Below are positions 9,372 to 32,482 of a stretch of DNA of 64,000 bases, in pieces; positions within the stretch are counted from its first letter, which is position 1; each line of letters begins with the position of its first letter. Made by a program: the position numbers and the translations under genes. Under the pieces are notes generated by a model, which searched no databases, was not told the origin of the DNA, and saw nothing but the letters and a program-made list of their open reading frames with translations. The stretch comes from an uncultured Planctomycetaceae bacterium (GTDB lineage: Bacteria; Planctomycetota; Planctomycetia; Isosphaerales; Isosphaeraceae): positions 3,072,001-3,136,000 of the forward strand of contig CAWIAD010000002.1 of the NCBI GenBank assembly GCA_963833985.1. Reading direction: 5' to 3'.

Positions 9372-9832
9372 CGGTGCGTCGTCGCTCGGATCGACTCACC
9401 CGACGGTTTCAGCTTCCGGGCCTGGCCGATCCCGTGATCCCCGCCCGACCCCCCTCGATCGCATCGTCGCCGCGGCCCCCGACCCGAAATACGTCACGTT
9501 CATCCACCCCGCAGCCGTCCAGGGCCGTCACGGACTTCGCGCGGCTCGCCGCCAGCTTGAACCAGCGCCGCCTCGAAATCCCCTGCTGTTGCTGAAGAGC
9601 CGTGGAATCTCTGACAATTGTAGAGGGGATGGTTGCCTCGCGGAGAGATTCGCAGTGTTTCGGACGTGTCTCCGCGACGCAACCATCTTCTCCCTCGGGT
9701 TTTCGGGCAAGTTTCCTGCCCTCCGGTACACCTATATCTTAAAGAATTAATGGTCTTTCGTAAGTACCTACGGACATGCAACTTGCGGCGTCAACCATAT
9801 CAGGGCGTGTCGAGCGCAGCGACGACGCACCG
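9372..9832. repeat. Pair of oppositely oriented REP-like sequences (9372-9404 and 9802-9832)
   Basis: CGGTGCGTCGTCGCT..TCGAC at 9372 is the reverse complement of GTCGAGCGCAGCGACGACGCACCG near 9809-9832. Confidence 0.5.
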
Positions 9833-9857
9833 ATTTTGCGTTCCTGGGATCCTCCCT

Positions 9858-10127
9858 GGTCGGGCTCACGCCCGAGGTTGGAGGCTGCGCCCGTGAAAAC
9901 CACGTGCTAACGCACGTGGCCATGTGCCGCGGAGTCCATGGCGCTGACGCACGTGGCCATGTGCCGCGGACGCCAGGGCGCTCGCGCACGTGGGCATGCG
10001 CTACGAAAGCCGGGACCGGCGGACCGGCGCCGGGGCCTTGCGTGCGATGCGGCGACGTGCAGGTCGGGCTTACGCCCGAGGTTGGAGGCTGCACCCGTGA
10101 AAACCACGCGCTGACGCACGTGGTCAT
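9858..10127 (+). repeat. ~65-bp direct repeat with internal hairpin plus a 37-bp tandem repeat
   Basis: GGTCGGGCT(C/T)ACGCCCGAGGTTGGAGGCTGC(G/A)CCCGTGAAAACCACG occurs at ~9858 and ~10062. A 37-bp unit GCT.ACGCACGTGGCCATGTGCCGCGGA.. starts at 9906, 9943 and partially 9980. Confidence 0.8.
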
Positions 10128-10417
10128 CCGGCCTGGACTCCGTGGTGCTGGCGTCCGAGGTCATCCGACTTGAAAGAAAGAGAGGGCGACCGTCCGGGTA
10201 GGTATCTGTCCCTGTAGGATGAGTATGCTGTACCCGGAACCCGACGCGCAAGAGGTGAGCCGAGGGGCAACTCGCCGCTATACTCGATGGTGAGCGAGGG
10301 GCCCGAGGATGACAGGGAATGAAACGATCACGATGAGCCGGCCGGGTGAGATGAGGAACGCCCAGCGCGCGGCCGCCTGGCCTCCGCGTTGAAAAGACGG
10401 TTCTCAAGGAGCCAGTT

Positions 10418-12300: not shown

Positions 12301-13335
12301 ATGATCTCGCGCCCCCTTCGTGCCGTCCGCGTCGATGCCCTGGAGCTCGAGGGGCGTCTGCTCCTGGCGGCCCCGGCGGTGCCAAGCACCGTTGCGTCAG
12401 CTCAGAAACCCGTCCTCGTGCAAACCCACCTATCCCTGGGATTCGCCGGCACACCGACTCCGGGCACGTCGCAGGTGACCCAGGTCGTTTACCAGCAAGA
12501 CGGCACGGCGACCGTGACGCTGTCGGAGAGCGGTTACGTGCCGATGCAGGTGGAGGTCAAGACCGACCCGTCGTCGCCGGCCGTGGGTGTGAACGTGGGG
12601 CCGGTCGACCAGATGGTCACGTTCGCAAACCAGACGAAAGCCACCCTGAGCGTGCCGATTCTCGCCGGCGCACAGAACCCGGGCGAGGTGGATGTCGCCT
12701 TGACGGTCACACCTGTCAATCCGCCGGCACCCATCACCGTTACGGGCCCCCTCGTGCTCCGCATCCTGGCGTCGAGTGCGCCGGCACCGCCAACCATCAC
12801 CGCCGAACAGGGAACCCCTCAGGGCATCGTGCTCACGTTCAGCAAGCCGATGGACCCGGCCAGAGCCTCCGACGTGAATAACTATGCGGTGCATTCGTCG
12901 TACGCTGACTCCTATCTGCTCGGCGGCTTCCTCGGTCAGCTCCTCGGCTCTCGGCTGCACACAGTCTCTTTCTTGCATTCGGTGCCGCTCCGGGCCGCCG
13001 TGTACGATCCCGCGACGAACTCGGTGACGCTCATCCCCAGGCGTAGGCTGACCTACAAGGCCCAGATCACCGTGACCCAGGGGTCCGGGTTGAACAACTC
13101 GTCACGGCCAGGACACCCGTCGGACGCCCCCCTCGGTCTCGGCGACCTGGCAGGCAATTCGATCAATGGGGACTCGACCCCAGGAAAATTCTCGGTTGTC
13201 GTCACGACCGGGAATCCGCAGCCTGTTACGACCGGGAATCCGCAGCCTGTTTCGACCGGGGATCCGCAGCCTAATACGACCGGGAATCCGCGGCCGGCCA
13301 CGACCGGGAATCCGCGGCCGTATCGGCGACTGTGA
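12301..13335 (+). CDS. Planctomycete-type secreted surface protein (LE.R.LL leader, Calx-beta/Ig-like domains, C-terminal octapeptide repeats)
   Basis: LELEGRLLLA motif; VTFANQ..ATLSVPI; IVLTFSKPMDPARASDVNNY..YDPATNSVTL. Start uncertain (12238, 12295 or 12301). Confidence 0.65.
   Translation: MISRPLRAVRVDALELEGRLLLAAPAVPSTVASAQKPVLVQTHLSLGFAGTPTPGTSQVTQVVYQQDGTATVTLSESGYVPMQVEVKTDPSSPAVGVNVGPVDQMVTFANQTKATLSVPILAGAQNPGEVDVALTVTPVNPPAPITVTGPLVLRILASSAPAPPTITAEQGTPQGIVLTFSKPMDPARASDVNNYAVHSSYADSYLLGGFLGQLLGSRLHTVSFLHSVPLRAAVYDPATNSVTLIPRRRLTYKAQITVTQGSGLNNSSRPGHPSDAPLGLGDLAGNSINGDSTPGKFSVVVTTGNPQPVTTGNPQPVSTGDPQPNTTGNPRPATTGNPRPYRRL
13204..13323 (+). repeat. Five 24-bp tandem repeats encoding (T/S)TG(N/D)P(Q/R)P-x
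   Basis: Units of ACGACCGGGAATCCGCAGCCTGTT type at 13204, 13228, 13252, 13276, 13300. Confidence 0.9.
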
Positions 13336-22389: not shown

Positions 22390-22557
22390 GCCTCTCAGCG
22401 AGATTCATCGCGTGAGTCGCGAGACAACAGAAGGCCGGTCCAAGGGTAATGTGGCCGATCGTGGTCGGAGAGAGCGCACCCCGTCCGGCAGGGCATCCCG
22501 CCGCGGCCCAACCAGGCCCACGCGCTCCCCCGTCCGCACGGGTCGCGTATGATGCAA

Positions 22558-22646
22558 GGGAGCGGGCATCCGCTGGCTGACGATGACGGTTCGCGGTCGG
22601 GCCCACGAATGAAGCCAAGCGGGATTGGCGGACCGTCCGCCGTGGT
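22558..22646 (-). pseudogene. Isolated diverged fragment of the comEC 3' region (metallo-beta-lactamase domain)
   Basis: Encodes HGGRSANPAWLHSWARPRTVIVSQRMPAP versus HGGRSANPPWLYSWAKPRAVVVSQRMPAP at 30039-30127 (24/29 aa identical, ungapped). Confidence 0.9.
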
Positions 22647-22838
22647 CCGGTAAGTTGGTCCCGCCAGGCCATCCAACGGTTACATGTAACAATACAATTA
22701 CAAACATCGTACCAGAGTCACCGTGAAGCGCTTCAGGGCCGCGTCCGTCCCGGCAGCGACGGTCACACCGAGATGGGCATGCTGTCCCCGGAACCCGTGC
22801 AGTCAGGCCCGCGCAGCAAAGCGGCCGCAAACATCGGC

Positions 22839-23243
22839 TCAGCCTGGTAGGAACGCCGAGGGCCGCACGCCGAAGTACCGGGCCAACACGATCACCTGCT
22901 CCTTCGTCAGTGAGCGAGTGCCGTTCATGATGGCCGAGATCGTCGACTGCGTGATTCCGACCCTGGCTTCGAGCATCTTCTGGGTCAGTCCGTTTGCCCG
23001 CATCAGTTCTTTCAGCACGTCGCCTTCGAAAACCTCGCGGGCCGGCTCGTGGACCGCCTCGTAACGCTCTACCAGGTCGGTCAGGGCGTCGAGATACAGC
23101 TCGGTCCCCTTATCCGAAGGGACCCGGAGCAGCTCATCCAGGATCGCCTGGGCTCGCTTCAAGTGCGCATCGTCTCGAATGCTGGCCAGGGGGAAACGTT
23201 CCACGAGCTTGAAGTAACTTGCCGGAGCCGTCTTTACCGCCAT
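22839..23243 (-). CDS. higA: HigA-family antitoxin (HTH-XRE)
   Basis: FPLASIRDD, LDALTDLVERYE, HTH LTQ..L...GITQSTISAIMNGTRSLT; directly downstream of higB. Confidence 0.9.
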   Translation of the reverse strand: MAVKTAPASYFKLVERFPLASIRDDAHLKRAQAILDELLRVPSDKGTELYLDALTDLVERYEAVHEPAREVFEGDVLKELMRANGLTQKMLEARVGITQSTISAIMNGTRSLTKEQVIVLARYFGVRPSAFLPG

Positions 23244-23246
23244 GGA

Positions 23247-23591
23247 TTACTTGCCTTTCTTCCGCTTCGGCGGCGGCTCGTGACACCCGCAATCGTCGAT
23301 CCAGCGCCCTTTGTCGTATTGGGCATGGTCCATCACCTTGAGCACGTACACGATGCCCCTGGCATAGTTCACGCGCCCGATCAAACGGTACCGATTGTTG
23401 CCGACATCGAACACCACGCAGTTGCCCACCGTGCCTGCCGATTGGAATGCTTGCCTGAGCACTCCGAAGTTCGGCCAATCTGCGTTTTCGGTCACCTTGC
23501 GCCAGGTCGATATGTCACGCTCCGCAATCAGCGAATCAGCGCCGCGCGACTCCCAGAACTCGCGCAACCGGCGATTGGAAATAACCCTCAC
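23247..23591 (-). CDS. higB: HigB-family mRNA interferase toxin
   Basis: GTG start with GGAG RBS; RVIS.R.LREFW, VVFDVGNNRYRLI..VNY, H..YDK motifs. Confidence 0.9.
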   Translation of the reverse strand: MRVISNRRLREFWESRGADSLIAERDISTWRKVTENADWPNFGVLRQAFQSAGTVGNCVVFDVGNNRYRLIGRVNYARGIVYVLKVMDHAQYDKGRWIDDCGCHEPPPKRKKGK

Positions 23592-23798
23592 TTCCGTGAT
23601 CTCCTTCCGCACGCCTGGCCGGGCGCGGTAGGTCCTCCGTCGACATTATCGCTGAGTGCGATATTCCAGTCAACCCGAGTATCGCACTGTGCGATCGTCA
23701 TCCGCACGGAGAAATTTGAGAGACATTGGTGTCGGAGAAATTCGTGTCAGAGAGGAATGGCACTCGGATAGTGCAAACCGATCACCCCAACAACACTC

Positions 23799-23876: not shown

Positions 23877-24017
23877 CAGGGGTTACGTTATCCGAGTGCC
23901 AGTCTGAACCGACACCGAATTCCGGACATGAACTAGAGTTTCGGTATGGGCGGTCCACCCCGATGCTGCATTGCGAAGGTGCGATGGACGGTGGCTCGTC
24001 CTTGGAGGAACTGCCCC

Positions 24018-25247
24018 ATGCCTCAGACGGATTTGCCATCTGGGCTAACGCGCCTTGGTTGCTTCTCATGGTGGGCTCGGGTCCTCGTGTTCTCCACCTC
24101 AGCCCTCATCTCGTCGGCAGCGGAGGGCAAGTCGTCTGAAACGACGTTCGCCGAGGTCATCGGCCAGCACTTCCAGGCCTGGGACCTGAATGGAGACGGT
24201 CGGCTCGAGGTCCACGAGATCGACCGCTTGACGTCCGAACCTTCGATCCGAGGCGACGCTGCCGCGGCGCTTGCAGCCATCAAGATTCACGAGCGAAAGA
24301 TTGGCGGGGCGGAGCACCGTAGGTTCGCCCCCGGACTTGACGAGCTCCAGGGCCGTATTGTGAGCGGGCCCCGTCCGATGGTCCCAGCAGGGCCGTTGAT
24401 CACCGGGCCGACCGTGCCATATTCCTATGAGCATGCGTTTCGCCGGCTAAGCGCCGAACTCGGCGCGGTGCCCTCCTTCCTCTTCGCTCACGACGTCCCT
24501 GACTTCGGTGTCCTGCGTCAGGGCTCGATCAAAGACTGCTTCTTCTTCAGCGTGATCGGAAGCATCGCGGCGCTTCGACCACGACGAATCGTCTCGATGA
24601 TCGAGCCCATGGCCGGCGGCGGTTTTGTCGTGCGATTCCCAGATGGGCCCCTGGTCCGTGTGCCACCCGTGACGCAGGCCGAGGCCCTCGTGAACAATAC
24701 GCTCTCCACGCTAGCAGATGGGCTCTGGCCCGTCGTCCTGGAGAAGGCCGTCGGTGAGATCGACCGCGAACATACCACACGCGACCGCCGGACCGCCGAG
24801 CCGACAGACTCTATCGCGCACGGCGGTTCGACCAAGAGGACGATGTGGCTCTTCACCGGTCACGCCTCATACGAGTTCATCCTGCGCCGTCCGCAATACG
24901 AAGCCCGAGACCTGGCCGAGATCCGCCGAATCCTACCGCAGACATTGGAAGCCGGCCGGCTGGCCACCGCATCGATGGGGCGGTACCCGGCCGGCCCGAA
25001 GAAGGTTCCGAAGCTGGGCTACAAGCACGGCTACGGCGTGATCGGCTTCGACCGTCGAACCGACGAGCTTGTCCTATGGAATCCGTGGGGTAACACATTC
25101 ACCCCGAACGGCCCTGAAGGCCTCGAACACGGCTTTATTACCAAACACGGCGTCTTCCGGGTCTCCCTGAAGACGTTCTACGAAAACTTCTCGACTCTCC
25201 ACGTCGAGTCAGCCGAGCTGCTGCCTTCCCGCTACAGAAAGATATGA
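24018..25247 (+). CDS. Secreted calpain-like (peptidase C2) cysteine protease with EF-hand
   Basis: QGSIKDCFF (Cys), W..LEKA, KHGY (His), WNPWG (Asn); EF-hand DLNGDGRLEVHE; GGAGG RBS before ATG 24018. Confidence 0.8.
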   Translation: MPQTDLPSGLTRLGCFSWWARVLVFSTSALISSAAEGKSSETTFAEVIGQHFQAWDLNGDGRLEVHEIDRLTSEPSIRGDAAAALAAIKIHERKIGGAEHRRFAPGLDELQGRIVSGPRPMVPAGPLITGPTVPYSYEHAFRRLSAELGAVPSFLFAHDVPDFGVLRQGSIKDCFFFSVIGSIAALRPRRIVSMIEPMAGGGFVVRFPDGPLVRVPPVTQAEALVNNTLSTLADGLWPVVLEKAVGEIDREHTTRDRRTAEPTDSIAHGGSTKRTMWLFTGHASYEFILRRPQYEARDLAEIRRILPQTLEAGRLATASMGRYPAGPKKVPKLGYKHGYGVIGFDRRTDELVLWNPWGNTFTPNGPEGLEHGFITKHGVFRVSLKTFYENFSTLHVESAELLPSRYRKI

Positions 25248-25426: not shown

Positions 25427-25774
25427 TCAAGAGTAGGGGAGATACTCGACCCGGTTTTGCAGATCGTCCGGGTCGAGGGTTCTGGCAATCAACTCCAGGT
25501 CGCGAACGGCCTGGCCAATGGAAATACCGAACTGGTGCGCGTACACGACGCCAGAGAAAGCCGTCCCTGTTTGCAGACGCCCGTGCGCGATGACCAGCAG
25601 ATCTTGGTCCTGACTGAAAAGCACGCGGCCAGGTGACGTGGCTCGGTCCAGGAGAGGGTCGTCGTCAAGCCTTGCTGACCCATCCTCTTGAGCGGTAAGT
25701 ACGTCCACTCCCCGGTTCCGCAATCCCGCAGTGATCGCCGCAGGCACGTGATGATCCATGTACAGCGATACCAT
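25427..25774 (-). CDS. DUF5615 PIN-like toxin (in frame with upstream DUF433 as sequenced)
   Basis: LYMDHHV....GLR.RGVDV.T, D..LL..AT..GRVL.SQD.D, H/F.GVVY motifs. Confidence 0.85.
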   Translation of the reverse strand: MVSLYMDHHVPAAITAGLRNRGVDVLTAQEDGSARLDDDPLLDRATSPGRVLFSQDQDLLVIAHGRLQTGTAFSGVVYAHQFGISIGQAVRDLELIARTLDPDDLQNRVEYLPYS

Positions 25775-26089
25775 CAGGAGGCAAGACCTTCGAGCCTTGA
25801 TCTTGGCTCGCAGAACGGATTCACTTTGATGTCCCCGGAGATGCTCGACCGCACGCAACTGTTCATCGATGGCTCGATCCATTTCCTCCTGATGGTCGTG
25901 ATAATAGGCCAGGCAACTGTGAATTTGTCCCAGCGTGAGGTGCGGGTGTTGGCGCTGAATCTCATCGGCATCCCAGTGGTGTGCCAGACGATCCAGGGCG
26001 ACCTCAAGAACTTTCGTTTGTGTCCCAATCAGCCAAACTTGACCGTCGGCGCGATTCTCGACGTGAGGGTAGTTGGTCGGAGTCGACAT
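25774..26089 (-). CDS. DUF433 antitoxin
   Basis: AGGAG RBS; I.GT.TKV, EIQRQHPHLTLGQIHSCLAYYHDHQEEMD. The expected stop (TGATG overlap at 25774-25776) is one base out of frame. Confidence 0.85.
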
Positions 26090-26338
26090 GGTTTTCAGCT
26101 CCTGTGGAGGACTCGCACGAGTCCCATGGATATCATACACAGGACGCAACGCCGGGGCATGGCTCGAATCGCAAAGGCCCCGTCTGTCGGCACAGGAGCG
26201 ACAGCGAGATCGGAGCGGCTCGGAACGGGATGCCGCCAGCAGGATTGACCGACCAAGAGTTGCGGGGACGGACACCAAACGCAATTCTTGACGGCATGCA
26301 ACTGGTCTCGGTCCATTTTTCGACGGGACGAGTTACGA

Positions 26339-26434
26339 TCAACGCTGATCGCGCTGATCCAGGAACCCTTCCGTGATGATCCCGTCCGATCGCCATTGTA
26401 AGTGGACGGCCCCGAGTTGCCAGGTGCGCAGCAG
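26339..26434 (-). pseudogene. Second diverged fragment: extreme 3' end of a comEC homologue including its own stop
   Basis: Encodes LLRTWQLGAVHLQWRSDGIITEGFLDQRDQR* versus LLRTWQRGAVHFKWRSDQIITEGFLD of resident comEC (22/26 aa identical, several synonymous changes). Confidence 0.92.
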
Positions 26435-26441
26435 GAGAGAG

Positions 26442-26917
26442 GAGAAATCAGTGTCGAGAAATCAGTGTCAGTTCATTTTTCTGAGAAATCAGTAAAAGAG
26501 AAATCAGCAGAGAGAGAAATCAGTGTCAGTTCATTTTTCTTGACGGAGCAGCAGAGAAATCAGCGTCGAGAAATCAGTGTCAGAGAGAAATCAGGAGAGA
26601 AATCAGAGAGAAATCAGTGTCAGTTCATTTTTCTTGACGGAGCAGCAGAGAAATCAGCGTCGAGAAATCAGTGTCAGAGAGAAATCAGAGAGAAATCAGG
26701 AGAGAAATCAGTGTCAGTTCATTTTTCTTGACAGAGAAATCAGTGTCAGTTCATTTTTTTTGACGGAGAAATCAGGGAGAAATCAGTGTCAGTTCATTTT
26801 TCTTGACGGAGAGAAATCAGTGTCAGTTCATTTTTCTTGACAGAGAAATCAGTGTCAGTTCATTTTTTTTGACGGAGAAATCAGGGAGAAATCAGTGTCA
26901 GTTCATTTTTCTTGACG
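26442..26917 (+). repeat. Array A: ~22 head-to-tail units starting GAGAAATCAG, 9 containing the full GTGTCAGTTCATTTTT core
   Basis: Directly readable. Unit lengths 11-40 bp; higher-order duplications 26514-26607/26608-26701 and 26702-26810/26811-26917. Confidence 0.95.
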
Positions 26918-26941
26918 TAAGCCCGCATCTCGCCGTAACAT
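26912..26941 (+). promoter_or_regulatory. Putative sigma70 promoter for a leaderless RAYT transcript
   Basis: TTGACG (26912-26917, end of last repeat unit), 18-bp spacer, TAACAT (26936-26941); ATG 7 nt later at 26949, no SD. Confidence 0.5.
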
Positions 26942-26948
26942 GGGCATC

Positions 26949-27671
26949 ATGGGACGTCTTCCTCGCGCCACCGACGACGGTCTGGTTTACCACGCGATGA
27001 ACCGCGGGAACAACCGCGCCGACGTCTTCGTCGGCGATGGCGATCATGAGGCCTTCCTCGAGTCGCTCCGGGCTGCGAAGGACCGTTATCCCTTCGCACT
27101 ATTCGGTTATTGCCTGATGAGCAACCACTTCCACCTCCTGCTCAAGCCGAGCTCAGGGCAGTCGATCAGCCGGATCCTCCAGTCGCTCAGCGTGGCCCAC
27201 ACGTGGCGATACCACAAACGGCACCGCACCTCGGGGCACGTGTGGCAGGGCCGCTTCAAGAGCCCGGTGATCCAGGACGATGACCACCTGCTGGTCGTGC
27301 TACAGTACATCGAGGCCAACCCTGTCCGCGCCGGTATGGTCGCCGACCCGAGGGCCTACCGGTGGTCGAGCTATGGCCAGCACGGACTGGGACTGGTTGA
27401 CAAGCTTTTGGACGGTTTCCCCGAGTGGGAGCATCTCGGCCCGTCCGAGGTGGAGCGTAGGCGGCGGTGGCGGGCAAAGCTGCTGTCGGCGCAGAGGCAG
27501 GACGAACTGACAGCGGTACGCGACTCGTTGCGAACCGGACGCCCGCTGGGCTCTCCCGCCTGGGTCGAGGGAGTCGCGACTCGATTGGGCATTAACCTGA
27601 CCCCGCGCCCGCGGGGCCGGCCTCGAAAGGAGGAATCGGCATCGGCCGGAAGTGCCCGAAAAATGAACTGA
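26949..27671 (+). mobile_element. REP-associated tyrosine transposase (RAYT, HUH Y1 family)
   Basis: YHAMNRGNNR..VF, YCLMSNHFHLL (HUH), GHVWQGRFKS, YIEANPVRAGMV (catalytic Tyr), YRWSSY, C-terminal RPRGRPRK. Stop codon lies inside the first right-hand repeat. Confidence 0.93.
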
Positions 27672-28092
27672 CACCGATTATCACGAAAAATGAACTGACA
27701 CCGATTATCTCCCGAAAAATGAACTGACACGCGATTATCAGCCCGAGCAGGACGAATGAAGCGTAGGACTCAACCGGACTCCGCTGGCTCTCCTGGCACT
27801 CGATTGCATCTCTTGACCCCGCGCGCGGGGCCGGCCTCGAAAGGAGCAATCGGCATCGGCCAATGAACTGACACCGATTATCACGAAAATGAACTGACAC
27901 CGATTATCTCCCGAAAAATGAACTGACACCGATTATCTCCTGACACCGATTATCTTCGCGAAAGGAGCAATGGCATCGGCCAGAAGTGCCCGAAAAATGA
28001 ACTGACACCGATTATCCCCCGAAAAATGAACTGACACCACGATTATCCCCGAAAAATGAACTGACACCGATTATCTCGACACCGATTATCTC
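27657..28092 (-). repeat. Array B: ~11 units ending GACACCGATTATC, inverted relative to array A, interspersed with partial copies of the RAYT 3' end
   Basis: Repeated GAAAAATGAACTGACACCGATTATC(TC); 27741-27861 and 27957-27990 resemble 27495-27658. Confidence 0.95.
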
Positions 28093-28196
28093 GCGGAGGA
28101 CGAGTCAGGCGGTGGAACCCTCTAGCAGCCGTGTCTGGCGGGGTTCTCAAGACGATTGATTGCGTGCAATCGGGACTTTGGTCCCAAACGTTCAGC

Positions 28197-28955
28197 TTAC
28201 GAGGCGATCTTGAACCGCTCTGCGAGCAAGTCGAACTCGTTCTCTCCCTGGATTGCCCTCCTCTTGGGAAACCGGATCGGCAGGCTTTCGAGATTCCATA
28301 TCTGGGTCACAATCTCATCCCATGGCAGCGACCCACGCGGCATGGTCGATCGCTGGTCGTTGGGGTCAACGGGTTTGACCCTTAGCACCTGGATGATCAG
28401 AGTGCCGAAGCCGATCGTCATCGCGTACGCGCGGTCGCCTGCCCCTTCTCCCCTCATCTCCAACAGCCTGGCGACGACAAAAGGTCCAGGCGATCCTTCC
28501 CATCGACATACCCACACATGCGTTTGGATAGGAATTGGACGATTCTCATACGAATAGAAGACCGTCCGCTCCTGATCGGTGAACCGCCAGACACCTGGGG
28601 GATTTCTCGTCTCGGAACACATCGCGGTCATCACAGCCCAAGAGGTCAGCAGCTTGCATTCGCAAGCATCGAAAGAGACAGACGAATTCGATAGAAGGGA
28701 CTTGATGAGCGGCTTCGCGCCTTCCTGCAAGCGGCTCATCCATCCAACATTGCAATATTGACAGACGGATCTTACGGTCAGCCTCAGATCAGTGACCCTC
28801 GTGCATAAAACGGGCGAGTTCATGTCTCCCTGGTATTCGAGCGTCCCGTGCCCCTTGAACTCCTTTCGCAGCCAATTAGGGAACACGTGTTCCTCCGAGC
28901 CAGCCTCTTTGCCACAGAAGATGCACTTCTCGGTCGTCGAGTATTTCTTGCTCAT
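28197..28955 (-). CDS. Putative HNH-like zinc-binding endonuclease-domain protein
   Basis: N-terminal CIFC...SEEHVFP.W and VC..CN.GWMS.L(E/Q) pattern typical of HNH-like zinc domains; lower GC than core genes. Confidence 0.6.
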   Translation of the reverse strand: MSKKYSTTEKCIFCGKEAGSEEHVFPNWLRKEFKGHGTLEYQGDMNSPVLCTRVTDLRLTVRSVCQYCNVGWMSRLQEGAKPLIKSLLSNSSVSFDACECKLLTSWAVMTAMCSETRNPPGVWRFTDQERTVFYSYENRPIPIQTHVWVCRWEGSPGPFVVARLLEMRGEGAGDRAYAMTIGFGTLIIQVLRVKPVDPNDQRSTMPRGSLPWDEIVTQIWNLESLPIRFPKRRAIQGENEFDLLAERFKIAS

Positions 28956-29407
28956 CACGTGACCTTGCGAACAAGCTGATCCGTCGATTGAGATTGATTG
29001 TGTGCTGGAACGTGCCGCGAGTGGAATACTTCACCCGCATCTTGAAGCAGCCGAGGTCGTGGCGCGGGAGGGGGATGCGGTCGACTGGAATACAGGGCAG
29101 GCGGCTCCGCTCGATACGCAAGTCCTAACAACTTACGGGAGCGGCATCAAGCGAGGAGGCAGAACTGCCCAACAGGTGAAGTCCGAATCGCGAAACGACG
29201 CTCGTAGGCGGGAAGCGTGGCAAGTCAGCTAAGGAATGCGATCGCGTGATGTTCGTCGCTGACAGAATTTTCATTTATTTTGAAATGTCTGAATCGCCAG
29301 AATCTTCTTGAATCCATCCACGCAGATAGTTGGAATGAATGAACGCTGGTCCAGAGCTAAGTTTGCAGCTCGTAGACTAACTGTAGGACAGTAAGAGGGG
29401 CTTCTGG

Positions 29408-29614
29408 ATGTACCGGCATTACATGCAGAGATCCATAGTTGAATTGGAGGCGATCTATCGAGGATCGTTATCTGACGAGGGAACCCTACGCCAGTTGCTT
29501 TTAGAGCTTAATCACCGCAATACCAGACGAGCAATGGTTTTACTGGATTTGGTCACCAGCAGGCTGAGTGAGATCGCGTCTGATAAGATGCTCGCCAGGA
29601 ACCCATGTCCGTGA
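29408..29614 (+). CDS. Small hypothetical helical protein or 5' remnant of a larger gene in AT-rich DNA
   Basis: GAGG RBS-like sequence upstream; amphipathic YMQRSIVELEAIY..LRQLLLELNHR..RRA; followed by degraded sequence and array C. Confidence 0.4.
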   Translation: MYRHYMQRSIVELEAIYRGSLSDEGTLRQLLLELNHRNTRRAMVLLDLVTSRLSEIASDKMLARNPCP

Positions 29615-29768
29615 ACAGGTCGATTGTGGGAAGATTGCCTGACGCGAGAGTAATCGAGTGCTCTCTTCCGAGGAAATCGCAGTCAGGCAGGACTTTACGT
29701 TCGACCTCGAAAAGCGCTTCAAGAGAGCTTTCCCTGCCGACGTGCGTAGCCTTGCCAGCCCCAGCCCA

Positions 29769-29882
29769 GGAATGCTTCGGTGTCAGTTCATTTTTCTGGC
29801 GCAGGAATGCTTCGGTGTCGGAATGCTTCGGTGTCAGTTCATTTTTCTGGCGGAATGCTTCGGTGTCAGATCATTTTTCCCG
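29769..29882 (+). repeat. Array C: 4 units starting GGAATGCTTCGGTGTC with the same core as arrays A/B
   Basis: Units at 29769, 29804 (truncated), 29820, 29852; the last overlaps the comEC stop (29871-29873). Confidence 0.95.
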
Positions 29883-32482
29883 AGGCAGGAGTTGTGGTCC
29901 AGTTTGATGCGGGTGATCCAGGAACCCCTCCGTGATGATCTGATCCGAACGCCACTTGAAGTGCACGGCCCCGCGCTGCCAGGTCCGCAGGAGTGGAATC
30001 CCGCTTCGCTCAAGGGGCATGAGGGCGTCGCTCGTCCCGGGGGCGGGCATCCTCTGGCTAACCACAACGGCTCGGGGTTTGGCCCAGGAGTAGAGCCAGG
30101 GAGGATTGGCGGACCGTCCGCCATGGTGGGGGGAGAGCATCAGGTCGATGGGCTCGGGCTGAGCCTGGGCGACCAGCTCGACGAGGCCGAGCTGGTCCAG
30201 GTCGCCGGTGAGCAGGAGGTGGTGGCCAAGGTGCTCGACGTCGAGGACCAGGCTGCGGGCGTTGTCGGGCGTTTCCGGGTGCCAGCCCCGAGGCGGATGG
30301 AGCACCGTGAAATGAACGGTGGCCTGGGTCCACTGCCGCGGCGCGGCAATGGTGCGGATCGGAATGCGCCGGGCCCGGAACTGATCCAGCAGCAAGGTCA
30401 CGCCTGGGTTTTCCTCGGTCTCGGTCACGAAGCCAGCCGGGAGGACCAGCTCGCCGACCTGGAAGCGGTCCAGCAGGTCGGGAATCCCGTTGTAGTGGTC
30501 CTGGTCGGCGTGGCTGAGGTAGATGGCGTCGATCCGAGCGATCCCGCGTGACCAGAGCGCCGGGGCGATGATCCGCCGCCCCACGCGCGGGTCGCCCATG
30601 CGCCCGCAGTCATAGAGCAGGGTCCGGCCGTCGGGCAGATGCAGCACGACCGCCAGACCGTGACCGATGGCCAGCAGATCGCCTTCGAGCGTTCCGCCCG
30701 TTCGAGCCGGTGAACCGAGCAGCCAACCGGGAAACGTGCAGGCCGGCACGGCCAGCCAGAGGAGGAACCGCCAGAATCGCCAGCGCGGAATGAGGCCCTC
30801 CAGTGCGCACGCGGCGCTGGCGACCGTCGCCAGCAGGAGCAGCAGGTAGAAGACCGCGACGGTGACCCAGGTCGGGCCGGGCACGAAGACGTATCCCCAC
30901 GGCTGGGAGGCACCCCAGCGGACGATCTGCTCCGAGAGCCGCAGCAGCAGATCGGCGGCATGCACCGGCACGCTGGCCAGCGGGCTCCAGATCGCGCCCA
31001 CGACCATGCCCCCGGCCCCCAGCAGCAGGGCCAGCGAGGTGAACGGGATGAGCGGGATGTTCAGCAGGACGCCGATCGGTGAGACGAGATGGAACCGCAG
31101 CGCGACCAGCGGCAACGCGGCCAGCCAGACGACCGCGGAGGTGAGAAGGCCCCTGCCCAGCCAGGACAGGGCCCAGTCCAGACGCCTTCGCCAGCGCGGC
31201 TGATACGTACGCTTGAGCGCTTCGATGGCGTCAGACGGACGTTTGAGCATGGTCTTGACCGTGGAGACGATCTCCCCGAGCAATCCCCGGGCCATGGGGA
31301 CCAGCCAGAAGAGCGCGGCGATGGCCAGGAAGGAAAGCTGGCAGCCAACGTCGAACAGGAAGAACGGGTCCCATGCCAGGGTGAGCAGGGCGGCCAGTGC
31401 CAGGGTGTTGGCCGGCGCGAGGACCGTTCGACAATCGCGGCCAGGCAGAAGGTGAAAGTCATGACGGCGGAACGCACCACCGAGGGAGCCAGGCCAACCA
31501 GGAGGGCGTAGCCCACGGTGCCGGCAGCCACGCCGCCGTAAACCAGCCGGCGCGGCAGGCCCAGCAGGCGCAAAAGCAGGCCGAGTGCGACGGCCAGGAT
31601 CTGGATTTGAAGGCCCGAAATCGCCAGCAGGTGGGTGGTGCCGGTGCGGGCGAAGGCGTCGTTGGTCTCCGGATCGATGTCCTCGCGCTGGCCGAGGATC
31701 AGGGCTGAGGCCAGAGGCGCGGTACGTTCGTCGAGCGGAGCGACGAGACGGTCGCGGCAGGCGGCCCGCAGGTCACCCAGCCAGCGGTGCAGGGGCCACG
31801 CCTGGCCGTCGGGATTGACCGCAATTCCCGAGCCCTGGTCGACCGTGATGCGCAGGCGAATCCCCCGCGCCCGCAGGTACGCGCGGTAATCAAACTCGCC
31901 GGGGTTGAGCGGTCCGGCGACCCTGGAGAGCTGACCGGCCAGCTCGACGGGCTGGCCCGCGTGCAGGTCGCTCCGGTCGGCCGCGACGGTCACAAGAACG
32001 CGGCAGGAGACGTGGCGCCAGCGGCTGCCGTCGCAGACCGCGGTGAGCTCGACCTCCAGGCGCGTGAGAATGCGCTCGGGGTCCCCGGGGCCATAGCCTG
32101 TTGCGCTGCGGGTGCCCAGCGTTTCGGCGATGACTCCGCGTGCCCAGACCGCCTGGCTGGCCTCGCCGACACTGCTGCTCACATCGTCATCCGGCAGGTC
32201 GTTCCAGCAGTGGTGGTGCCAGCCCGCGGCCAGGGCCAGGATGGCCGCCAGCATGCTCGCCCGCGAGCCCAGCGCGTGACGCAGGGCCAGGCAGGCGACG
32301 GTGGAGGCGGCGAGGGCCAGGCCGGCCCAGGTTTCCGTAGCCAGGGAGCCAAGATGGCGATCGATGATGATTCCGCAGGCGAACGCTGCCAGGGCCGGAG
32401 CCAGCGGTGCGATCGACACGCAGGGGCGCTGCGAATCCTGGATGGCTGCCAGCGGATCTGGAGCGCTCAGGGAACCGTGCAC
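29871..32482 (-). CDS. comEC: DNA uptake competence protein ComEC/Rec2 (DUF4131 + competence + MBL domains); frameshift ~31420
   Basis: NPGEFDYRAYL, TGTTHLLAISGL, PSVVRS in ORF 31061..32482; GCQLSF, GHGLA, YDCG, SHADQDHYNG, LTGD, PHHG in the 29871 frame. Confidence 0.93.

Follow-up and report, generated by a model that had tools for sequence, protein, structure and literature searches.

Partial tandem copies of the TIRs of a Y1 HUH transposon share a fixed start and have variable ends

What process multiplies the end of a transposon into an array of pieces that all begin at the same point and stop at different ones? The locus that raises this question lies in a 64,000-nt stretch of DNA from an uncultured Planctomycetaceae bacterium (the window, to whose positions coordinates refer unless a contig or locus is named). 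A 16-nt core is matched 20 times within the window, compared with no match in 100 shuffles. The features of the locus are as follows.

23708 to 23750, plus strand: mini array of three decayed units, of the same TIR family as arrays A to C
26289 to 26434, minus strand: displaced remnant of the comEC 3' end with a degenerate TIR, ending where array A starts
26442 to 26917, plus strand: array A, the left TIR in 22 copies with fixed start and variable end (unit splitting, template parse)
26886 to 26911, plus strand: innermost left TIR, 26 nt (inverted pairing with the right TIR)
26940 to 27671, plus strand: Y1 HUH transposase of the TIRYT type, 243 aa (PF01797, NF047646, alignment, fold)
27658 to 27684, minus strand: innermost right TIR, overlapping the transposase stop codon (unit splitting)
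27685 to 28092, minus strand: array B, ten outer copies of the right TIR; 27742 to 27884 is probably mis-polished
28093 to 29768, no strand: segment of lower GC (0.53 to 0.56) that separates arrays B and C, whose starts stand back to back
28197 to 28958, minus strand: HNH-like ORF within the lower-GC segment (feature score 0.98, recognition below threshold; a lead only)
29769 to 29879, plus strand: array C, a lone TIR overlapping the stop codon of comEC, multiplied to four units
29871 to 32482, minus strand: comEC, as two ORFs overlapping at 31061 to 31295 (a true frameshift or a consensus error)

The product of the gene at 26940 to 27671 matches PF01797 and reaches 80.9 bits against NF047646, for which the cut-off is 80. 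H63-F64-H65 and Y123 are intact, and H63, H65 and Y123 are invariant in 22 aligned sequences. The predicted model (mean pLDDT 88.8) is closest in fold to TnpA-REP 4er8 (Z 16.8, rmsd 2.5, 159 aligned); a search by sequence returned no solved structure, and the nearest relatives are Planctomycetaceae and Isosphaeraceae records. As regards a C-terminal helix-turn-helix-like domain, which marks subclass 2.1, the model has helices at 170-182, 187-199 and 206-216, and no Pfam HTH was found in the 22 members, many of whose sequences end where the match ends. The subclass motifs NH[YF]H, W[EQ], Y---NP and SS read here NHFH, WQ, YIEANP and WSS, and the length of 243 aa compares with near 238 aa in subclass 2.1. 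This gene is flanked by an inverted pair of 26-27 nt at 26886 and 27684, in which a GGGGWSAS-like motif is approximated at 7 of 8 positions on the right and 6 of 8 on the left, and the left TIR alone is not a hairpin (-1.1 kcal/mol, z +1.3). Judged by motifs, TIRs and length, the element appears to fit the TIRtron/TIRYT type of TnpA-Y1 subclass 2.1.

Neighbouring classes fit less well. No GTAG tag, as in REPtron/REP-BIME, lies beside the gene at this locus, and the IS200/IS605 (subclass 1.1) marks DH[VI]H, Y---Q and subterminal hairpins are absent, with NHFH, YIEANP and inverted repeats instead. One-ended rolling-circle transposition of the IS91 family resembles the present case in having one fixed, HUH-defined end and one variable end, and differs, in the accessible part of its description, in having distinct ori and ter, no TIRs and a target tetranucleotide (PMC13181058); here both ends carry the same inverted core with arrays, both act as origins facing each other, and the copies remain in place. 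According to the parts available of the papers that describe them, TIRtrons/TIRYTs have a Y1 HUH gene between TIRs, a GGGGWSAS-like motif and TIRs in dimers or clusters (PMC3733652; PMC6006769); subclass 2.1 is the second largest Y1 HUH group, present in 14.9% of strains (PMC6006769), and group 1 has the most duplicates among true RAYTs (PMC5581495, likewise in part). The present element agrees with them in the Y1 HUH gene between TIRs, in the absence of a REP hairpin and in short TIR dimers elsewhere in the genome (PMC3733652). Unlike here, where the boundary of the units falls some 10 nt outside the conserved motif, these descriptions, within the same parts, give no polarity, fixed start, cut site or mechanism (PMC3733652; PMC6006769). 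A second Y1 family like subclass 2.3, treated below, behaves likewise.

Arrays A and B are the left and right TIRs of the TIRYT-type Y1 gene, multiplied outward. All 22 units of array A begin GAGAAATCAG; the 21 outer ones are 11-40 nt long, as a preliminary description of this DNA had noted, and the 22nd continues into the gene. They comprise 13 distinct junction types and include exact multi-unit duplications of 84 nt and 109 nt. The common starts described for the other two arrays are also found: array B has 11 minus-strand units starting xxGATAATCG, two of them with insertions of 1-2 nt, and the 4 units of array C start GGAATGCTTCG. Array C is grown on a lone TIR at the comEC stop, for which no inverted partner was found within 3 kb inward. 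Each array had been said to possess its own leader, and all 22 A units indeed bear the leader of this locus, not those of the genome's three other left-type arrays. Units 1 and 3 of array C, and the mixed leaders of an array at C1:2430803, do not match the present inner template. GCAGCA, which had been taken as the end of some A units, is present at 26548 and 26642 as one event, duplicated, with CAGCAG at 26505; these are better read as the start of the next unit, which would have been cut a few bases farther out in the flank.

The length of over 100 nt ascribed to B units probably does not hold. A B unit of 143 nt is identical to the native gene end at 138 of 142 aligned bases and is interrupted by 17 separate deletions. 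A contig of a near-identical sequencing run, X1, has a clean join from 27955 to 27598, and this junction reappears garbled at window positions 27803-27822. Given the deletions and the clean join, the 143-nt unit is probably a consensus error over a true unit of about 86 nt. Run X1, which has no library on record and a depth of 2 and is possibly from the same sample, gave no cover of array A; one unit junction was matched in it exactly. A search of sequencing runs found at most 0.09 of the words in any one run; every match was a contig, and no RNA run was listed. Clean long units of 169, 189 and 557 nt occur elsewhere in this genome. An origin of the B units in trans, from the paralog, was considered and is not needed, since the degenerate unit differs from the native end by only 4 mismatches and from the paralog by 11.

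To describe the junctions, positions were counted from the T of TGTC in the TGTCA core (0), with negative numbers upstream, on the leader side. When 11 arrays of this genome were parsed with no splitting on the leader, 84 of 104 template segments started at -12 to -9 and one in the flank. The tandem pattern, which requires two leader-bearing units, was matched in 27 of 121 family genomes and never with the reversed control; the genomes were chosen by this pattern, and kin among them are not independent. The parse set consisted of 25 of 30 pattern loci, 39 of 40 further stretches and the 11 own arrays, the rest being duplicates, and not all matches were fetched; it totals 103 arrays in 27 genomes with 288 distinct junction types, flank included. 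After 36 types with more than 10 unparsed bases had been set aside, 252 clean types remained. Their starts fall at -14 to -9 in 220 cases, with the mode at -12, whatever bases stand there, and their ends range from 0 to 179, peaking at 0 (28), 4 (46), 5 (14), 6 (29) and 14-22. The alignment of arrays that had been recommended as a check thus bears out the 5'-fixed, 3'-variable polarity. The parse needs a seed at -7 to -1, and internal starts were therefore checked separately: among 181 outer units with a core, 6 were flagged as lacking a leader, and on inspection the leader was present in all 6.

Only six junction types start beyond -16. The two at loci L130 and L148 are units from the opposite TIR, those at L095 and L145 are single outliers at -23 and -19, and the remaining two, both at L089, are a true exception that restarts at -32. 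The L089 array (L089:1379-1900), the clearest departure from the -12 rule, has a GC-rich palindrome in its units.

With one junction of at least 25 nt taken per array, 58 of 67 arrays fall in the start window against 15.2 expected from random breakpoints, the maximum of 200,000 simulations being 31; with unparsed junctions included, the count is 126 of 153 against 30.8. These figures bear on one rival explanation, that the arrays arose by ordinary slippage or as an assembly artefact, unconnected with the transposase. Part of array B does look mis-polished, and the whole-block duplications could be slippage between existing units. The polarity test, however, agrees with the earlier statement that slippage of a fixed unit does not account for the arrays, and a control on other multi-copy inverted-end elements was flagged at only 8 of 252 ends, 5 of them on Y1-type cores. 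Arrays also stand in finished isolate plasmids (3 of 8 fetched loci; 34 records matched) and in a genome of three contigs (G001), so that the assembly artefact named beforehand as a refuting case was not borne out, and a unit junction recurs exactly in run X1. Polarity test, control and finished plasmids already largely refute this explanation, which we regard as hardly credible.

A core-bearing TIR pair was found in 46 of 78 related loci, with arrays at 22 of 90 TIR ends, and 40 of 44 junction types start at -14 to -9; this set may overlap the parse set in a few loci. Array-bearing related loci come from records titled Planctomycetota, Acidobacteriota, Deltaproteobacteria or Geobacter, and Verrucomicrobia, and two calls in Sulfurovum are weak. 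In this genome a second Y1 family, with a length of 351 aa and the motifs NHLH and YIDLNP, resembles subclass 2.3. Arrays stand at 25 of its 37 ends, and of its 66 junction types 62 parse cleanly; all 62 start at -13 to -8, and their ends reach +545. Among the matches listed, flank homology in this family ends at -9 to -13 in 6 of 8 testable ends, two of them cis units, and at -22 and -28 in the other two. The polarity is tied to Y1-type TIR cores and is rare at other inverted-repeat elements.

What sets the start can be read from the junctions themselves. The 138 without extra bases comprise 72 blunt joins and 66 with an overlap of 1-5 nt. Blunt starts begin with G in 42 cases, A in 16, C in 11 and T in 3, and 30 of the 72 lie exactly at -12; on the leader strand, these joins show 13 different junction steps, and a C|T rule is not seen on that strand. 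The remaining 114 of the 252 junctions have 1-9 unassigned G-rich bases, which are partly parse noise; reading such bases as ultra-short leader prefixes was rejected, with 3 of 30 cases against 3.2 expected. Leaders vary by locus, being purine-rich to -13 in planctomycetes and T-rich in a Pseudoalteromonas plasmid (L215), and flank composition beyond -14 is that of the background. The start is set by distance from the core and not by leader sequence.

A cut on the opposite strand yields identical products. A fixed 3'-OH at the outer TIR edge would then be transferred to a loose second cut farther inside the sister copy, as a one-ended strand transfer. As the planctomycete leader is purine-rich, the opposite strand is rich in CT steps; it is pyrimidine-rich at -8 to -13, matching the cuts of the characterised TnpA-REP, which, in the accessible text, cleaves single-stranded DNA at C|T and also C|A and needs the 3' C for rejoining (PMC8266576). 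On the leader strand, moreover, first bases and overlaps are most often G. Yet 30 of the 72 blunt junctions lack an initial G, the commonest end (+4, 46 of 252) corresponds to a T|G step on that strand, the leader of L215 is T-rich, and two cuts are needed, one of them at arbitrary sites up to 545 nt away. We consider this route unlikely.

The origin of the copied DNA is apparent from units that run past the element. At G000 C2:4723798 units pass a truncated gene and continue into host DNA; at L148 and L130 a unit that starts from one TIR runs on through the dimer and the opposite array into the far flank; and a read-through in the second Y1 family gives one unit of 557 nt. Since units read into locus-specific host DNA, copying occurs in cis. 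This bears on a further possibility, that single-stranded pieces or circles initiated at the terminus are cut out and then ligated into nick sites at TIRs, in trans as well, as drawn in the part available of PMC3333891 (Fig. 7A). It would account for units unlike the present inner template, such as those of array C, B units with paralog bases and the group II intron end in paralog units. Against it, the leader of all 22 A units is that of their own locus, read-through leads into the flank at the same locus, the degenerate B unit resembles the native end more closely than the paralog, and units of 9-12 nt would be difficult to circularise. We regard such excision and ligation as very improbable, and the first two observations also run counter to the serial ligation suggested in the preliminary description, as far as free pieces from elsewhere are meant.

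Growth is not confined to the tip of an array, since the 84- and 109-nt blocks of array A begin at internal units and since two orthologous Skermanella plasmid loci share their outermost, most diverged unit and differ inside it. The comparison with telomere-like growth made beforehand is thereby not upheld. CRISPR arrays and telomeres are known for iterative, polarised growth of short repeats. Here there are neither unique spacers nor a constant repeat length, and growth takes place internally instead of at the end of a chromosome; in 252 of the 288 junction types the units form nested prefixes of a single template, with 0-9 extra bases. Neither target-site duplications nor empty alleles were found among 42 two-ended loci compared with this genome and the fetched loci, the one flag being a self-match.

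We propose that the arrays, tandem partial TIR copies of a TIR-flanked Y1 HUH transposon, are probably made by a nick about 12 nt outside TGTCA, inward extension by a host polymerase, and rejoining. Iterative nick-primed synthesis, already suggested from this window, fits the sequence data best, provided that it acts in cis, with the enzyme as its likely agent. The transposase would bind the core and, at a fixed distance from it, cut the leader strand so as to leave a 5'-phosphotyrosine, although sequence alone cannot fix the strand that is cut. The free 3'-OH would be extended inward by displacement synthesis over a variable distance, stopping mostly at 0, 4-6 and 14-22, where the bound enzyme may act as a block or a second cut may be made. 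The new 3'-OH would then attack the enzyme-held 5' end prematurely, adding one unit per cycle, and rejoining would leave a looped strand that replication fixes. Any core-bearing unit could presumably be nicked again, and such repeat nicking would give rise to the multi-unit blocks. A held 5' end that meets a foreign 3'-OH would produce the insertions and adjacent deletions observed at these ends.

The chemistry is that of HUH enzymes in general, which leave a 3'-OH and a 5'-phosphotyrosine, a link that 3'-OH attack resolves in vitro (PMC8266576, in the part available). In favour of the proposal, microhomology is not needed, as 72 of 138 junctions without extra bases are blunt. Several findings weigh against it. 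The C|T cutting and 3' C requirement of TnpA-REP, as given in the accessible part of PMC8266576, differ from the suggested distance rule; 66 of 138 junctions overlap, 114 of 252 hold unassigned bases and 36 of 288 were not cleanly parsed. L089, L095 and L145, the flanks ending at -22 and -28, and the ill-matched leaders of array C units 1 and 3 and C1:2430803 are exceptions.

The overlaps, the G-rich extra bases and the occasional flank bases at junctions would also suit a lesser role of the transposase, in which it does no more than nick or block at the edge of the TIR, and the duplication is made and sealed by host repair (through flap equilibration, realignment of the primer or end-joining). 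Duplications driven by flaps are known from other systems. Blunt joins at a sharp -12 are common, however (30 of 72 exactly there), and a protein-linked 5' end would most simply be sealed by the enzyme itself (PMC8266576, available in part); host repair as the maker of the arrays thus seems rather improbable.

Nicking, extension and rejoining by the transposase has a precedent as a scheme. In the available part of PMC3333891 (Fig. 7B), a nick, extension of the 3'-OH and attack on the 5'-phosphotyrosine, with a second cut at CT, are proposed for the growth of BIMEs by TnpA-REP, a cycle that likewise adds one unit (see also PMC8266576). BIME amplification as described there differs in that REPs, which are hairpins with a GTAG tag, are cut at C|T and that entire units are added (PMC3333891; PMC8266576), whereas the present units have no hairpin or GTAG, start by distance and are truncated anywhere, from 9 to 557 nt. 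Tandem REPIN clusters are also repeats of a Y1-associated element with flanking DNA; unlike the present arrays they consist of near-identical whole hairpin doublets, and the part available of their description mentions no fixed-start, variable-end polarity (PMC3116915). The type of element is thus known, and for a sister family the reaction scheme has already been put forward; the fixed-start, variable-end footprint of TIR-type Y1 enzymes is new to the literature searched, in which neither such arrays nor a distance-set cut for these enzymes was found (subscription papers, figures and supplements, such as PMC3733652 Fig. 9, lay outside its scope). The searchable papers likewise yielded no biochemical study, substrate rule, cut site or product for subclass 2.1.

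The arrays would represent an in vivo footprint of nick, extension and rejoining, hitherto only proposed for REP/BIME growth, and they predict a nick about 12 nt 5' of the G[GT]G[AT]CA core, on the leader strand and set by distance. How these repeats multiply thereby becomes directly testable. More tentatively, TIR-type Y1 enzymes (subclasses 2.1 and 2.3) might form a distinct kind of HUH enzyme, which reads a non-hairpin, probably duplex repeat, cuts one helical turn outside it whatever the sequence, uses both ends as inward-facing rolling-circle origins without a terminator and joins the held 5' end to any 3'-OH. If so, one reaction would yield arrays, adjacent deletions and foreign DNA captured at hot spots such as the end of comEC, and the arrays would be an ordered log of it within the genome.

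Several further observations concern the surroundings of these elements. A repeated 1.5-kb element with GAATGCC ends (G000 C2:1901072-1902567, 3541189-3542683, 1543841 and 677985) is bracketed by inward-facing GGGGAC cores with polar arrays; it is either a composite or an IS that lies within a TIR dimer. Exactly at TIR position 0, a group II intron (449-aa RT, YADD) is inserted (G000 C2:4725515-4727520). Its junction pattern occurs at 47 places in 32 of 121 genomes (control 3), with a TIR next to an intron start in only 4 of 10 fetched loci; loci noted are the paralog array at C2:2428030-2428360 and L199, L202, L204, L208, L110 and L012, and remnants of an intron 3' end lie inside units of the paralog array.

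Members of the genus carry serial comEC 3'-end fragments with cargo between them (window 22555-22650 and 26289-26434; L179-L195), with 14 matches in G013 and 18 in G010. Many fragments end at PHHG codons, as at an att site, many are capped by TIR-like sequence at the comEC stop, and TIR elements stand behind them in at least two genomes. That the fragments are giant array units was rejected for most, many stopping at one PHHG point and continuing in shared sequence as at an integrase att site. Downstream of comEC in the window lie toxin-antitoxin-type cargo, HigB with an HTH_3 partner and DUF433 with DUF5615 (22839-23612, 25427-26100), and a calpain-like peptidase (23946-25247). Of the 8 plasmid TIRYT loci, 4 likewise have toxin-antitoxin genes beside them. 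A 24-nt tandem repeat of 4.8 copies at window 13204-13319 is unrelated to the TIR core, and a remnant of the second Y1 family is present at window 9770-10130, with a GGACATGCAAC core and palindromic repeats downstream.
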